A stretch of 64,000 bases of DNA, taken from contig CAMOPX010000006.1 in NCBI GenBank assembly GCA_946622415.1, positions 3,693 through 67,692 on the forward strand, written 5' to 3'. This stretch comes from an uncultured bacterium (GTDB taxonomy: Bacteria; Cyanobacteriota; Vampirovibrionia; Gastranaerophilales; Gastranaerophilaceae). The notes under the pieces were generated by a model. That model was not told the DNA's origin, did no database searches, and saw only the letters and a program-made list of their open reading frames with translations. The first letter of the stretch is position 1, and every line of letters begins with the position of its first letter. Shown piece after piece: positions 25,362 to 58,617 of this stretch. Position numbers and translations under genes: made by a program.

Positions 25362-26729
25362 ATGACAACCTTTAATCAACAAAACATTCTTGAAACAATA
25401 AGAATGATTAAAATACATCATCTTGATATAAGGACAACCACCTTAGCAATAAGTCTAAGGGACTGTTGCACGAGTGATACGAAAAGAACAGCAAACAAAA
25501 TCTACGATAAAATTTTAAAATACGCAAAAAATCTTGTTAAATATGCCAACACTCTGGAAGATGACTATTCTATCCCTATAGTAAACAAAAGAATTGCACT
25601 TACTCCAATTTCTTTAATAGGCGAAAGCTGCGATAATGTTGATTATGTTTATATTGCACAAATGATAGATAAAGCAGGCAAAGAAGTAGGGGTGGATTTT
25701 ATCGGCGGATTTTCCGCACTTGTTGATAAAGGTTTTACAAAAGGCGATATCAGATTTTTTGAACAAATACCCGAAGCATTGGCTTCTACAAAGAAACTCT
25801 GTTCTTCGGTGAATTTAGGAACATCAAAAGCGGGAATCAATATGGATGCCGTGCTTAAAACAGCAGATGTAATAAAGAAAACCGCAGAATTAACAAAAAA
25901 AGAAGATTCAATCGGTGCCGCTAAGTTTGTTTGTTTTTGCAATGCAGTAACAGATAATCCTTTTATGGCAGGTGCATTTTGCGGAATCAATGAACCCGAA
26001 TGCTCACTTAATATCGGAGTTTCAGGCCCCGGTGTTGTTGCAAGTGCAATTGATGAACTTGATAAATCCGCTGATTTTGGCACCGTTGCGGAATTAATCA
26101 AAAAAATGGCATTTAAAATAACGGTTGCAGGCGAACTAATCGGAAATAAACTTGCAAAAAAACTCAATGTACCTTTCGGAATTATTGATTTATCACTTGC
26201 TCCTACACCCGCAAAAGGTGATAGCGTAGCAGAAATATTCAAAGCAATGGGATTGGAGCATGCAGGTGCACATGGTACAACGCTTGCTCTTGCAATGTTA
26301 AATGATGCCGTTAAAAAAGGCGGAATTATGGCCTCAGGTTTTGTCGGCGGTTTATCCGGTGCTTTTATTCCGGTTTCTGAGGATGCGGGAATGATAGAAG
26401 CAGCAAGAAAAGGCTCGCTAACGATAGATAAATTGGAAGCTATGACAAGTGTATGTTCTGTCGGTTTAGATATGATAGCAATTGCCGGTGATACGCCAAA
26501 TTCCACAATTGCAGGCATTATTGCGGATGAAATGGCAATCGGAATGATAAATAAAAAAACAACCGCAGTTCGTATAATCCCCGTAATCGGGAAAAAAGTA
26601 GGCGAAGAAGCAGAATTTGGCGGATTATTAGGAACCGCACCGATTATGAAAGTAAACCCGTATTCCTCGGAAATTTTTGTAAAAAGAGGCGGGAGAGTGC
26701 CCGCACCTTTGCACAGTTTAAATAATTAG
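25362..26729 (+). CDS. UPF0210 (DUF711, PFL-like) family protein
   Basis: 455 aa with N-terminus [22 protein letters not shown]. Conserved partner of the preceding ACT protein. Confidence 0.85.
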
Positions 26730-26753
26730 GATTGCGTTTTAGTGCGGATTATA

Positions 26754-26960
26754 TGCAAAGAAAAGCGCAAGCACCATAAATCGTTTTATTTCCACGCATT
26801 ACGTAGCGAATATTTGTTGTTTCTTTTAATTTTCGTTAAAAAACCGTATTGTCTGAGAACCGAAGGTTCGAGTTTACGATTTTAGAAAATTAAAAGATTA
26901 CAAACAAATAATGAGCGAAGTGTAGCGTGGGGAGTTTCTTTTCCGCCTCTTTTCTTTGCA
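26754..26960. repeat. ~207-nt imperfect palindrome folding into a rod with a large central bubble (candidate 6S-like RNA or MITE-like element; strand unknown)
   Basis: Helices found by hand folding: 26754-26765/26949-26960 (12 bp), 26792-26797/26925-26930 (6 bp) and 26811-26834/26885-26910 (23 bp). There is an internal loop 26798-26810 vs 26911-26924 and an apical gaacc-gaa-ggttc. Confidence 0.5.
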
Positions 26961-26978
26961 GGCTCAAAGAAAAGAGGC
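26945..26978. repeat. Perfect 13-bp hairpin with purine-rich arm
   Basis: gcctcttttcttt pairs with aaagaaaagaggc around loop gcaggctc. It competes with the closing helix of the long hairpin. Confidence 0.6.
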
Positions 26979-27004
26979 AAATATAAAAAGACTTTCTTTG
27001 GTTC

Positions 27005-27048
27005 ATTTCTTTCTTTTTCTTGCGGCTATTGAGCAAAAAGAAAGAAAT
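27005..27048. repeat. Perfect 14-bp hairpin related to the preceding one
   Basis: atttctttcttttt pairs with aaaaagaaagaaat with a 16-nt loop ctt gcggct att gagc. It lies 60 nt past the OMF gene stop, and no clean U-tract follows. Confidence 0.6.
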
Positions 27049-27107
27049 AAACGTTAGAAAAATAAAAAATAACTTAATTACAAATTAAAATAAATGTAAT
27101 TCCACAA

Positions 27108-28505
27108 TTAAATCTTAGCACCTGTTGCTTTATACAAACTGATTTTGTCTATAAAACAATCCATCTTCGCTGTAGTGGTCAACTGTTTTACATACAAAAG
27201 CGTTTCTTCATGCTGCAACAAGTCGAGCTTTGATATTACGCCTTTGTTAAATTTCGACTGAGTTAATTCATAGTCTTTATTTTGTATCTCAAGCGCCTTT
27301 TTATTGTTTATATATTTGTCATTATCACTTTTTAAATTATATAAAGAATCATTTATTTCTTGAATTGCCGTCAGATTTGTTTTTTCATATTTTTGCAAAA
27401 GTTGTTGATATTTAGCTTTACTTATTTTTAGATTTGCTACCCTTTTAAACCCTGTAAATATAGGTAAGCTCGCACCGGCACCTAAAGCAGCGACTGCCGT
27501 ATTCCATCCCATATCAACACCTGATTGAGCAATAAAAGTTACAAGTCCCAAAATATCAATAGTCGGTAAAAATTCTTTCTTTGCTACTCTAATATCAATC
27601 CCTGCAGCTTCAAGCTGTTTTTCAGCCGCTTTATAATCGGGACGATTTACGATTATTTCCGATGAAATTTCACTTGGTATATTAAAATTGTCATTTAAAC
27701 CGTTATAAGAAATTCTTTCATAATTTTTTGAATTTTCAGCACTGTCTCCGATTAAAACTGCCAAAGCATTAAGTGCATTTTGGCGGTACTTTTTATAATC
27801 AAGGAGATCATTTTGAGCAAGAACATAGTTTTTTTCAGCCAAAATCAAATCAGAGGTTGATGTGATGCCTTCTTTATTTGATATTTTCATTAGTCTGAAA
27901 ATTTCGCCACGCTCTTCGACAAGTTTTTCTTGATTTTTTATCAATTCATCAAATTTTACGATATTATAATAAGTTGCGCCGACCATTGAAACCACTGCAA
28001 TATCAGAGGTTTGCGTATTAAATTTTGTGCTTTCCAATAGTTTTTTGGAAGATTTTGTTTTATCCCAATTTTTTCCGAATAAATCCAATTCGTACGAAGC
28101 TATAATCGGCAGCGAAAAGGAACCTTGACTTTTTGTTTGATAAGGCATTTTCATTAATACGGGCGAAGGACTGATTGATAAACTCGGCAATTGATCTGCG
28201 CGGGCAATAGTAACAGAATTTTTTGCAATTTCAATATTTAATGCGGCAATTTTGATATCGTTATTTTTTTCAAGCGCCAATTCAATATATTTTTCCAACA
28301 ACGAATCGTTTTGCTTTCGCCACCAATCATAATTTATATAATCAAGAATCCTTGTTTCTTCCTCTACTTTATTTTTATTTTTAAACAGTTTAGATTCTTT
28401 TTTAAAATTTTGTCCGCTGTTTGTATCCGTAATTGCATAACTATATGGCAAAGATAAGCTGAGTAAAATTGATGTAAATATTGATAGTGTTAAAAATTTT
28501 TTCAA
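27108..28505 (-). CDS. Outer-membrane efflux protein (TolC/OprM-type OMF)
   Basis: Has the duplicated OEP repeat pattern. The ORF runs to a TTG at 28517. However, the TTG at 28505 has SD GGAG 6 nt upstream and gives a classic signal peptide, MKKFLTLSIFTSILLSLSLPYSYA. Confidence 0.8.
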   Translation of the reverse strand: MKKFLTLSIFTSILLSLSLPYSYAITDTNSGQNFKKESKLFKNKNKVEEETRILDYINYDWWRKQNDSLLEKYIELALEKNNDIKIAALNIEIAKNSVTIARADQLPSLSISPSPVLMKMPYQTKSQGSFSLPIIASYELDLFGKNWDKTKSSKKLLESTKFNTQTSDIAVVSMVGATYYNIVKFDELIKNQEKLVEERGEIFRLMKISNKEGITSTSDLILAEKNYVLAQNDLLDYKKYRQNALNALAVLIGDSAENSKNYERISYNGLNDNFNIPSEISSEIIVNRPDYKAAEKQLEAAGIDIRVAKKEFLPTIDILGLVTFIAQSGVDMGWNTAVAALGAGASLPIFTGFKRVANLKISKAKYQQLLQKYEKTNLTAIQEINDSLYNLKSDNDKYINNKKALEIQNKDYELTQSKFNKGVISKLDLLQHEETLLYVKQLTTTAKMDCFIDKISLYKATGAKI

Positions 28506-28576
28506 AGTATTCTCCAAGTCCCAATTAATTTATAATTTTATTATTGCATTTTTTTCAATATAATGCTAGCATATTA

Positions 28577-34119: not shown

Positions 34120-34185
34120 TTATTTTTTAGCAATTTTTTTACTATTTTGTTTTTATAAAACAGTAAAGTTTAAAAAAAGGAAAAA

Positions 34186-34857
34186 ATGATGCAAGAACTC
34201 AAAATTGGTCCGAATACCGGACACATAATCAAAAGAGCTGTTAACTGTAAGACTCTCGGGACTTTAGGACGAGAAGAAGATGCAGCGCAAGTTTTGATGG
34301 AAAATCCGATAAAACCGTATGTTGATACAAGAACTTTGGGTCAAAAGTTTTTATTTTATTCAAAAGAAAATCTTGCAAGTGTTAAAAAAGCAACAGAAGG
34401 TAAAAAACCGGAAGAAATACTTGAACTTATAGGGATAAAAACATCTACGCTTCCTGACGGAAGTAAATCCATCAGTGCTTTTCATGCACCAACACAATGG
34501 TGCACTTTTAAAACTCTCGGAATAAACGAAGAACAATTACTTGCAGATGTCAAAGTTATAAAAGGCAGTTGTGATTTAACAGGCAGCTATTTAAAAAATT
34601 TATCCGGTGTTGAACGTATTGACGGAACTCTGATTATACCTATTTTTTCAAAACTTGAAGATTTGAGTTCACTGAAACAAGTAAACTTTATTTCTTGCGA
34701 CGCAGCAGATTCAAAAACCGTACAAGATACATTGTCAAAATTATCACTCAATTGTATAACTTTTGGAATAAACCGCGTTTTTAACCCTGGATTTAAAAAA
34801 TTGCCCTTTCAGGATACTCTAAAATCTTTCATGGCATCAGGTTTATATAAGTCTTAA
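34186..34857 (+). CDS. Hypothetical protein (223 aa), C-terminal half weakly leucine-rich-repeat-like
   Basis: Good SD (aaaggaaaaa). No recognised catalytic motif. The stop overlaps the radA stop through TTAA. Confidence 0.4.
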   Translation: MMQELKIGPNTGHIIKRAVNCKTLGTLGREEDAAQVLMENPIKPYVDTRTLGQKFLFYSKENLASVKKATEGKKPEEILELIGIKTSTLPDGSKSISAFHAPTQWCTFKTLGINEEQLLADVKVIKGSCDLTGSYLKNLSGVERIDGTLIIPIFSKLEDLSSLKQVNFISCDAADSKTVQDTLSKLSLNCITFGINRVFNPGFKKLPFQDTLKSFMASGLYKS

Positions 34858-47646: not shown

Positions 47647-48903
47647 GTGAATAATATTACACTCCACAAAAAACACTACTTAAGATTATCATTAATTATT
47701 ATAGCAACAGTATTTTACTTTTTAGCCAATATACAAAGAGTTGCTATTCCGGGAGCAATTTTTGATTTATTACAGAATGATTTAGCCGCCTGTGCATCTA
47801 AAATAACCTTGTTAGGTGCAATTTTTTGCTATATTTATGCAATAACGCAACTTGTTGTCGGATTAATGGTGGATAAAATAGGAGGGTTTAGGGTAATTGC
47901 AATTGGCGCTGTTGCTTTTGCTTTGGGCGCAATATTATTCCCACACAGTCAATCATTTTTCGGATTGTATATTTCAAGAGCGCTTGTCGGATTTGGTTCT
48001 GCAACCTTTTATTTAAGCGCCGTGAGAGAAGTTAAAAAATACGTTCACGATAAGAATTTCACTCTTGCAATTTCTTATATTTTGTTTTTTGGTTACAGCG
48101 GAGGTATAATCGCAAATGCACCTTTGGTTTCCGTAATAAATAAAACAAGCTGGCAAGCCGTATTTTATTTTATAGGATTTTTCAGTTTATTTTTATGTGT
48201 TTTATATTTAATTCTTTTATTTATTTTTAAACCCGTTCATTCGGAAAAAGAAACAAGGTTTTCTTTTGCACCGTTTAAAGAAATTTTAACCAACAAGGAT
48301 AACATAATCCTTTACTTGTTCGGAAGCACAAATTATGGACTGTATTATGTTTTGCAGAGTGTTATAGGAAAAAAATTCTTACAGGATTTTTGTTATTATA
48401 ATGTATCTGATAGTGCGATTGTATTATCAATTATGGCTTTGATTTCAGCGATTGCAGGCACAATAACCGCATATATTTCAAGATGTATGAACAATAAACG
48501 TACAGGAATATTCAGAACGTATGCAATACTTTCTTTTTTATCTTCTCTTTCGGTTTGTTTATTTTTGATACTTGATATTCATACAAAAATTATTGCATTT
48601 ATATTTTTAATCCCTTCTTTTATCGGGAGTATCTCACCTATTCTTATTTTGACGTTGCATATAATAAACAGATACGAAGTTTCAGCAACCGCCGTTGCAA
48701 TTCAAAATTTCGGATTTTTTATGATGGTAGGGATTTTAGGTACACTATCAGGGGTTTTGATGAATTTGTTTGAACCCGTAAAAACAGGTAATGCCTTAAT
48801 TTATCCGAACAATTCATATTTATTGGTTTTTGGAGTGTTTTTAGTACTTAGTATTGTAGAAGTTATTTGCGCTTTTAAAACTAAAGACAACTACGGAAAA
48901 TAA
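47647..48903 (+). CDS. MFS transporter (12-TMS type)
   Basis: 418 aa with about 12 hydrophobic spans and the motif-A-like GLMVDKIGGFRV. GTG start. Confidence 0.75.
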   Translation: MNNITLHKKHYLRLSLIIIATVFYFLANIQRVAIPGAIFDLLQNDLAACASKITLLGAIFCYIYAITQLVVGLMVDKIGGFRVIAIGAVAFALGAILFPHSQSFFGLYISRALVGFGSATFYLSAVREVKKYVHDKNFTLAISYILFFGYSGGIIANAPLVSVINKTSWQAVFYFIGFFSLFLCVLYLILLFIFKPVHSEKETRFSFAPFKEILTNKDNIILYLFGSTNYGLYYVLQSVIGKKFLQDFCYYNVSDSAIVLSIMALISAIAGTITAYISRCMNNKRTGIFRTYAILSFLSSLSVCLFLILDIHTKIIAFIFLIPSFIGSISPILILTLHIINRYEVSATAVAIQNFGFFMMVGILGTLSGVLMNLFEPVKTGNALIYPNNSYLLVFGVFLVLSIVEVICAFKTKDNYGK

Positions 48904-58439: not shown

Positions 58440-58472
58440 TACCTACATTGACTAACCAAAAAAACTAACAAA

Positions 58473-58499
58473 ACCTTGCATTATATGCAGGGCTTTTTA
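58473..58499 (+). terminator. Terminator of the HD-GYP-like gene
   Basis: ccttgca / tgcaggg stem (one G-U pair) followed by ctttttatttt. Confidence 0.6.
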
Positions 58500-58533
58500 T
58501 TTTGATTTAAGTCGTTAAAAAGCAAATAAAAAA

Positions 58534-58557
58534 CCCCTCTAAAATTAATTAGAGGGG
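58534..58557 (-). terminator. Terminator closing the prophage lysis cassette
   Basis: cccctct / agagggg stem. On the minus strand it is followed by tttttattt. A second perfect 9-bp hairpin gttttagac/gtctaaaac lies at 58581-58604. Confidence 0.65.
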
Positions 58558-58617
58558 TAAATTAATATTTAACAAAGGAGGTTTTAGACAATATAGTCTA
58601 AAACGGGACGAATAAGT

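Follow-up and report, generated by a model that had tools for sequence, protein, structure and literature searches.

The convergent genes encoding a DUF711/UPF0210 protein and a TolC-like outer membrane factor (OMF) are separated, in the window studied here (i.e. the whole 64-kb stretch of DNA that was analysed, which relatives of its DUF711 protein assign to a Gastranaerophilales (Melainabacteria) species and which occurs in sheep and cattle gut metagenomes), by a 378-bp spacer (26730-27107) whose pronounced self-complementarity raises the question of whether it harbours an RNA gene, a mobile repeat or the transcription terminators of its neighbours. The original prediction had read it as a 6S-RNA-like rod or a MITE/REP-like palindrome, and had described it as richer in G+C than the other spacers and almost entirely self-complementary. 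Both of these descriptive points were confirmed: the spacer, which is the longest true non-coding one of this very compact window outside a prophage and also the one richest in G+C, has a G+C content of 31% (vs 24% in the window's other spacers, pooled), contains all the helices that had been listed, and as a 378-nt sequence reaches fold z-scores of -5.45 (plus strand) and -8.25 (minus strand), with 0 of 100 shuffled sequences being equally stable. The parts into which we divided the locus are the following (depths refer to the metagenome run X7 unless stated otherwise; no strand is given for parts that were assigned none):

25362-26729, plus strand: DUF711/UPF0210 gene, left neighbour (Pfam PF05167, E = 2.4e-181)
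26724-26728: AATTA, left copy of the 5-bp direct repeat flanking a 382-bp indel; it includes the first two bases of the DUF711 stop codon
26729-26788: single-copy left part, outside the multi-copy core (depth 1x, i.e. 93.9; 0 in the runs X10, X11 and X17)
26789-26933: core rod, a 145-nt imperfect hairpin (delimited from MFE folds, covariation, flank joins and depth)
26934-26944: linker rich in pyrimidines (GAGTTTCTTTTCC region) that joins the rod to hairpin b; no other part of the family is as abundant (depth 1365-1446 vs 94 in the flank)
26945-26983: hairpin b (perfect 14-bp stem, 6-nt loop) and its conserved (C)AAATA tail, which together form the core's 3' end
26993-27079: hairpin c module with A-rich tail, the terminal-hairpin module of a sister subfamily, itself repeated
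27080-27105: right end of the block, rich in A/T and, close to the junction, present in single copy (depth back to 95 from 27095)
27106-27110: AATTA, right copy of the direct repeat; it includes the TolC-like stop codon (TTA on the plus strand)
27108-28517, minus strand: TolC-like OMF gene, right neighbour (Pfam PF02321, E = 3.3e-52)

The central structure is shorter than the rod of ~207 nt that had been proposed. The 12-bp closing helix on which that length depended (26754-26765 with 26949-26960) is indeed complementary at 12 of 12 positions, but the MFE fold forms hairpin b in its place, and the left arm of the helix belongs to single-copy DNA of the flank, which other copies of the element do not have; we therefore place the conserved rod at ~145 nt (26789-26933). 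This rod is an inverted doublet forming one long hairpin with 41 modelled pairs, as REPINs do. From its base to its tip it comprises a closing helix CCACGC/GCGTGG (26792-26797 with 26925-26930), an internal loop carrying AGCGAA on both strands, a 23-bp A/U-rich helix (26811-26834 with 26885-26910), a further helix (26844-26848 with 26875-26879) and an apical stem of 5-6 bp with a GAA/AGA triloop (here GAACC-GAA-GGTTC, 26857-26869). The 6-bp and the 23-pair helices had been foreseen by hand folding and recur in the MFE folds, as does the apical element in the sequence, and the two strands of the internal loop do resemble each other in the same orientation (TAGCGAA at 26805-26811 and GAGCGAAG at 26913-26920, on opposite sides); the MFE fold, for its part, breaks up the large internal loop with helices of 2-3 bp. 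Downstream of the rod, hairpin b has the perfect stem ascribed to it, with 14 bp (26945-26958 with 26965-26978) rather than 13 (fold z-scores of -5.3 and -5.0 on the plus and minus strands, respectively), and hairpin c (27005-27018 with 27035-27048) was recovered as described and extends to 26-nt arms that are 85% complementary. The left part of the block holds a modest hairpin (26732-26770, z of only -1.4), and the weak A/T hairpin at its right end (27080-27105) is not significant (z = 0.28).

We sought copies of these parts in public metagenome unitigs. In X7, where the unique flank has a depth of 94-95x, the values rise to 352x over 26805-26831, to 1059-1122x over 26895-26912 and to 1327-1446x over 26931-26957, and the rod as a whole ranges from 3.7x to 12x the flank; the core is likewise deep in X10, X11 and X17, in which the left part (26729-26788) has no coverage. 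Four long contigs from X7, with lengths of 49,969, 5,221, 21,363 and 41,507 nt and depths of 94-103x, terminate within the element. In all runs combined, the left flanks are of at least eight kinds, every one of which joins at TCYCRCGC (~26790-26794), and the right flanks, which follow hairpin b and its AAATA tail, are of at least six kinds. The shared left joint and the varied right flanks delimit a core of ~195 bp (26789-26983) that consists of the rod, the pyrimidine-rich linker, hairpin b and AAATA, and that is present ~12-15 times per genome at unrelated sites (a figure obtained from summed unitig depths, which may include other strains). Many dispersed copies (with target-site duplications) had been named in the original prediction among the observations that would speak against an RNA gene, and many dispersed copies are what the unitigs contain; dispersed copies with different flanks are also what characterizes a classical MITE. 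A pattern scan of metagenomes for the element recovered nothing beyond this locus in a further strain (L081).

The element also coincides with breaks in assembled sequences. A contig of the same species (L087) stops inside it, at ~27059, and the window's own contig (73.7 kb) begins in a copy of a c-type hairpin (L090:1-77, 78% identical to hairpin c) and ends in a prophage. This copy sits 3.7 kb before window position 1, upstream of a gene for a UvrD-like helicase (1265 aa), and forms a perfect 18-bp hairpin in which three arm pairs are changed on both sides relative to hairpin c. Separately, one of the X7 contigs (21,363 nt), which has its start in the element, terminates within an MFS transporter gene (47647-48903), at ~48295, where no repeat is visible in the window; this end probably reflects strain variation.

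The depth profile and the variants indicate a modular composition. Hairpin b has variants that keep a hairpin with other sequences (e.g. CCCCTTTCTTTT-CGGC-AAAAGAAAGGGG), and the DNA after AAATA differs between them. Hairpin c is itself repeated in X7 (~5.6x for its left arm, ~3x for the whole hairpin), and its other copies come after GCCGAGTTTTCTTCTT, a variant form of the linker found ahead of hairpin b, with related linkers GAGTTTTCTTCTT being found before c-type hairpins in further copies. Given this arrangement and the copy at L090:1-77, we regard hairpin c as the terminal module of a sister subfamily and the spacer as a mosaic, i.e. one full ~195-bp core copy followed by the sister-subfamily module, both within ~100 bp of single-copy DNA.

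Within the species, the block is present in some strains and absent from others. In four runs (X11, X12, X13 and X14) we found an empty allele, in which a contig joins 26723 directly to 27106 and skips 382 bp (26724-27105); three of them (X12, X13 and X14) hold filled and empty forms, and X11 the empty form only. Filled and empty sites, as expected of a classical MITE, are both found inside one species. The empty allele reads AATAATTAAATC, with the DUF711 stop codon (TAA) and that of the TolC-like gene (TTA on the plus strand) overlapping in TTAA, and at the joint five letters (AATTA) fit either side. The AATTA repeat could have arisen as a target duplication of 5 bp, or it could be microhomology at which a deletion took place. 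As ~100 bp of the block is single-copy DNA and the block has no terminal inverted repeats, both readings stand: we lean, if only just, towards an origin of the 382-bp block by insertion, and a history in which repeats entered an older spacer that was later deleted in some strains via the AATTA microhomology fits as well. The whole spacer is dispensable in nature, so that a 6S gene, or an essential RNA gene of any other kind, is excluded at this site.

More distant relatives differ at the same place. In a Logan contig whose TolC-like gene is 75% identical (L082), the whole gene order is kept and the convergent genes abut with a spacer of 0 bp. In the closest species of the genome collection (L001-L003, 83-87% protein identity) a different gene lies downstream of DUF711, with no spacer in between, and a relative with a 74%-identical TolC-like gene (L084) carries a pilin-like (N_methyl) gene and a small HTH gene at the OMF/DUF711 junction (L084:5432-6553). 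A further OMF fragment (L094, 95% identical) ends short of the junction. From the differences between the junctions of L001-L003, L082 and L084 it follows that the junction is variable and the spacer no ancient conserved locus; the OMF/DUF711 junction is a hot spot for gain and loss.

A second presence/absence polymorphism lies ~7 kb from the spacer. There, the strain represented by L081 is without ~720 bp that the window has at 34130-34853 (compare L081:8560-8600). The extra DNA encodes a 223-aa orphan ORF (34186-34857) that is possibly LRR-like and has no match in Pfam, NCBIfam or PHROG. In L081 the genes recG and radA share a TTAA stop overlap, and the window's extra DNA at this point is flanked by the 5-bp direct repeat TTAAT.

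Taken together, these observations point to the spacer being, most likely, a patchwork of non-coding, hairpin-forming dispersed repeats of this Gastranaerophilales species and not a 6S RNA gene. With similar confidence, we consider the repeat to be a new family of a familiar kind, namely an ordinary selfish-type hairpin repeat resembling MITEs, REPINs and ERIC elements. The MITE/REP-like option of the original prediction is borne out insofar as the element is multi-copy, polymorphic in presence and flanked by a 5-bp direct repeat, but not as regards terminal inverted repeats: the local alignment of the ends of the block scores 12 (vs a shuffled mean of 12.2), and the ends of the core (TCCACGC... 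and ...GGCAAATA) are not complementary.

To follow the fold across copies, we compared five reconstructed variants of 26805-26922, two of which are direct (the window and L081), one a single 124-nt contig (carrying 12 substitutions together and a 2-nt insert) and two joined from overlapping unitigs (the left-right linkage of X11_C being deduced from depth). Standard pairs fill 99% of the pair cells of this alignment, and at six pairs both partners have changed, whereas slid controls show at most one such pair; the compensatory base changes that had been suggested as a check are therefore present (e.g. C26845-G26878 to T-A and A26848-T26875 to G-C). Moreover, A26879G in L081 repairs a C-A mismatch, and the apical stem GAACC/GGTTC is replaced by GAGGTT/AACCTC or GGGAT/ATCCC, with the GAA/AGA triloop always kept. 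Judging from these five sequences, the fold is kept through compensatory substitutions. As Watson-Crick pairs make up nearly all of the helices on either strand, with 1-3 G-U pairs each way, the constraint could act on single-stranded DNA or on RNA, and a single U-G pair slightly favours the plus strand.

The best surviving alternative is built on this conservation, and we consider it unlikely: the copies would be paralogous members of a multi-copy family of small structured RNA genes instead of selfish DNA, the core being transcribed as a ~190-nt rod RNA that would have hairpin b as its 3' end and whose AGCGAA loop would bind a protein or RNA. Such a family would account for the compensatory changes that preserve every helix, for the internal loop and linker being both the most conserved and the most abundant parts, for the stable hairpin at one end, and for a spacer that in L081 is 99% identical (vs 97.2% across the surrounding 8.6 kb); furthermore, the U-G pair on the plus strand (column 49-70, type B) corresponds to a C-A mismatch on the other. 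DNA palindromes, however, typically show such a near-absence of G-U pairs on either strand, sister strains do not have the locus, and the copies break assemblies as young repeats do. Nor does the spacer hold a promoter signal above shuffled expectation or, on either strand, a U-tract after hairpin b or c, in agreement with the lack of a convincing promoter and of proper U-tracts that the original prediction had remarked upon. The element was found in no RNA run: in six metatranscriptomes the organism was barely covered (a handful, at most, of low-depth contigs from its flagellin and other genes), with no interpretable signal from the spacer, and two candidate RNA runs (X22 and X23) yielded only short DNA-like pieces.

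A more far-reaching reading, which we hold to be a long shot, sees in the core a structure-defined mobile rod that would be recognised in single-stranded form (ssDNA or RNA) through its invariant AGCGAA/GTAGCG loop and terminal hairpin, that may double as a Melainabacteria small RNA family and that perhaps belongs to a wider, uncatalogued class of rods.

That the hairpins evolved locally as stacked bidirectional terminators of the two convergent genes is highly improbable. Their position between convergent genes, the read-through transcripts that must meet them and a weak terminator-like alternative fold on the plus strand (26927-26946, the sole call) are what such terminators would offer; yet these sequences turn up at many further loci, some strains have no spacer at all, neither hairpin b nor hairpin c has a U-tract, and the canonical terminators of this genome look different (a G+C-rich stem followed by a T-run, as at L090:78-105 and 58475-58560). 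In addition, the OMF gene already has a terminator-like hairpin on the minus strand inside the 3' end of the DUF711 coding sequence (26689-26704, GCGGGCACTCTCCCGC and CTCTTTTT), which would lie ~20 nt past the TolC-like stop in the empty allele and may be that gene's real terminator. Two further structured regions came to light in this context: the canonical terminator at L090:78-105 (GTCGGGTT-AAAA-CCCGAC and a T-run) directly follows the c-type hairpin copy, and a strongly structured spacer at the prophage border (58440-58617, z = -6.15), unrelated to the repeat, folds into three hairpins that are distinct from one another, of which two are canonical terminators with a tract of U or A.

The 6S RNA gene (ssrS), or a 6S-like RNA polymerase-binding RNA, can for practical purposes be dismissed: 6S RNA is a single-copy housekeeping gene in all strains (its product binds the sigma-70 RNA polymerase holoenzyme and templates pRNA), and the element shares with it only the overall shape (a rod of ~150-200 nt, similar in length, with an internal loop), while being multi-copy, missing as a whole spacer from conspecific strains and from the syntenic relative L082, dependent for its proposed 12-bp closing helix on flank DNA lacking in other copies, and unmatched by the 6S covariance model (RF00013), both at gathering score in the whole 64-kb window (where no Rfam family was matched) and in a permissive scan (E<=10) of 26600-27250 (which gave 48 hairpin matches, all below threshold and with no 6S among them). 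An IS110-type bridge RNA was also considered and rejected, the loop segments showing no match of >=6 nt to the empty site or the element ends, self-matches aside.

The preferred reading, i.e. a dispersed hairpin repeat, invites a comparison with the known classes, and the repeat resembles both ERIC/Correia-type and REPIN/PATE-type elements in behaviour, while answering to neither the classical MITE nor the REP definition. ERIC/IRU, YPAL and Correia/NEMIS are long palindromic, MITE-like intergenic repeats of proteobacteria. Like them, the element is a non-coding imperfect palindrome of 100-200 bp that folds into a long hairpin, is dispersed in at least a dozen copies through intergenic DNA that is probably transcribed, and differs between strains in presence and absence. 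Unlike them, it belongs to a Melainabacteria lineage, consists of an asymmetric unit (a rod plus a separate terminal hairpin) without terminal inverted repeats at its ends, and has no sequence similarity to any of these families; nor could a TA or other target duplication be made out for its core. REPINs and REP-BIMEs are mobilised by RAYT (Y1 HUH) transposases, and their REP arms are palindromes of 20-40 nt with a conserved GTAG end. With these and with the IS200/IS605-derived PATEs, the element has in common that hairpins (and not terminal inverted repeats) define it, that compensatory change keeps the fold, that hairpin units (b and c in tandem) form a modular mosaic, that it is located between convergent genes and that GTAGCG occurs in both arms (26804-26809 and 26922-26927). 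Its GTAG motifs are, however, direct rather than inverted and lie inside the internal loop, its arms of ~60 nt are not REP-like palindromes, and its copies number ~12-15 instead of hundreds.

With regard to distribution, nhmmer and a covariance model of the rod were run on the remainder of the window and on loci of ~40 related genomes that add up to 0.55-1 Mb, and neither found a further copy; none was found in plasmid and phage collections, and two pattern scans of viral contigs returned chance matches or nothing. A homologue search with a 48-aa frame, aimed at recovering other copies through mis-called small ORFs, gave no candidates, and for the window's own two small ORFs no record was found. 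The repeat family seems to be confined to this species or its close kin. One region in a related genome (L007:8030-8165) was rejected as a copy (17.9 bits, E = 0.63 with the covariance model); it is a direct-repeat region without relation to the element, in which TTATCCTTTTT recurs several times in the same orientation, and is situated ~670 nt downstream of DUF711.

We propose that the core is a non-autonomous mobile element that is spreading now or did so in the past, and that the enzyme mobilising it would recognise hairpins instead of terminal inverted repeats, in the manner of REPIN/RAYT or IS200/IS605-derived elements. Its survival at this site may be owed to the junction between convergent genes, which, in so compact a genome, would be among the few places where an insertion does no harm. 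As the convergent transcripts must read into the block, it would probably act as a passive insulator or as a hairpin cluster that stabilises 3' ends, a role that we take to be a side effect and not the reason for its existence.

The identification of the spacer as a dispersed repeat removes a false candidate for a 6S RNA or other small RNA from an uncultured lineage and explains why assemblies of this organism break at this spacer. Furthermore, it adds to the Melainabacteria a structured and covarying repeat family of a kind that the literature we searched does not describe for them. Lastly, the gain or loss of a block at a TTAA stop overlap, mirrored 7 kb away, provides a natural example of how convergent gene junctions open and close in a compact genome.
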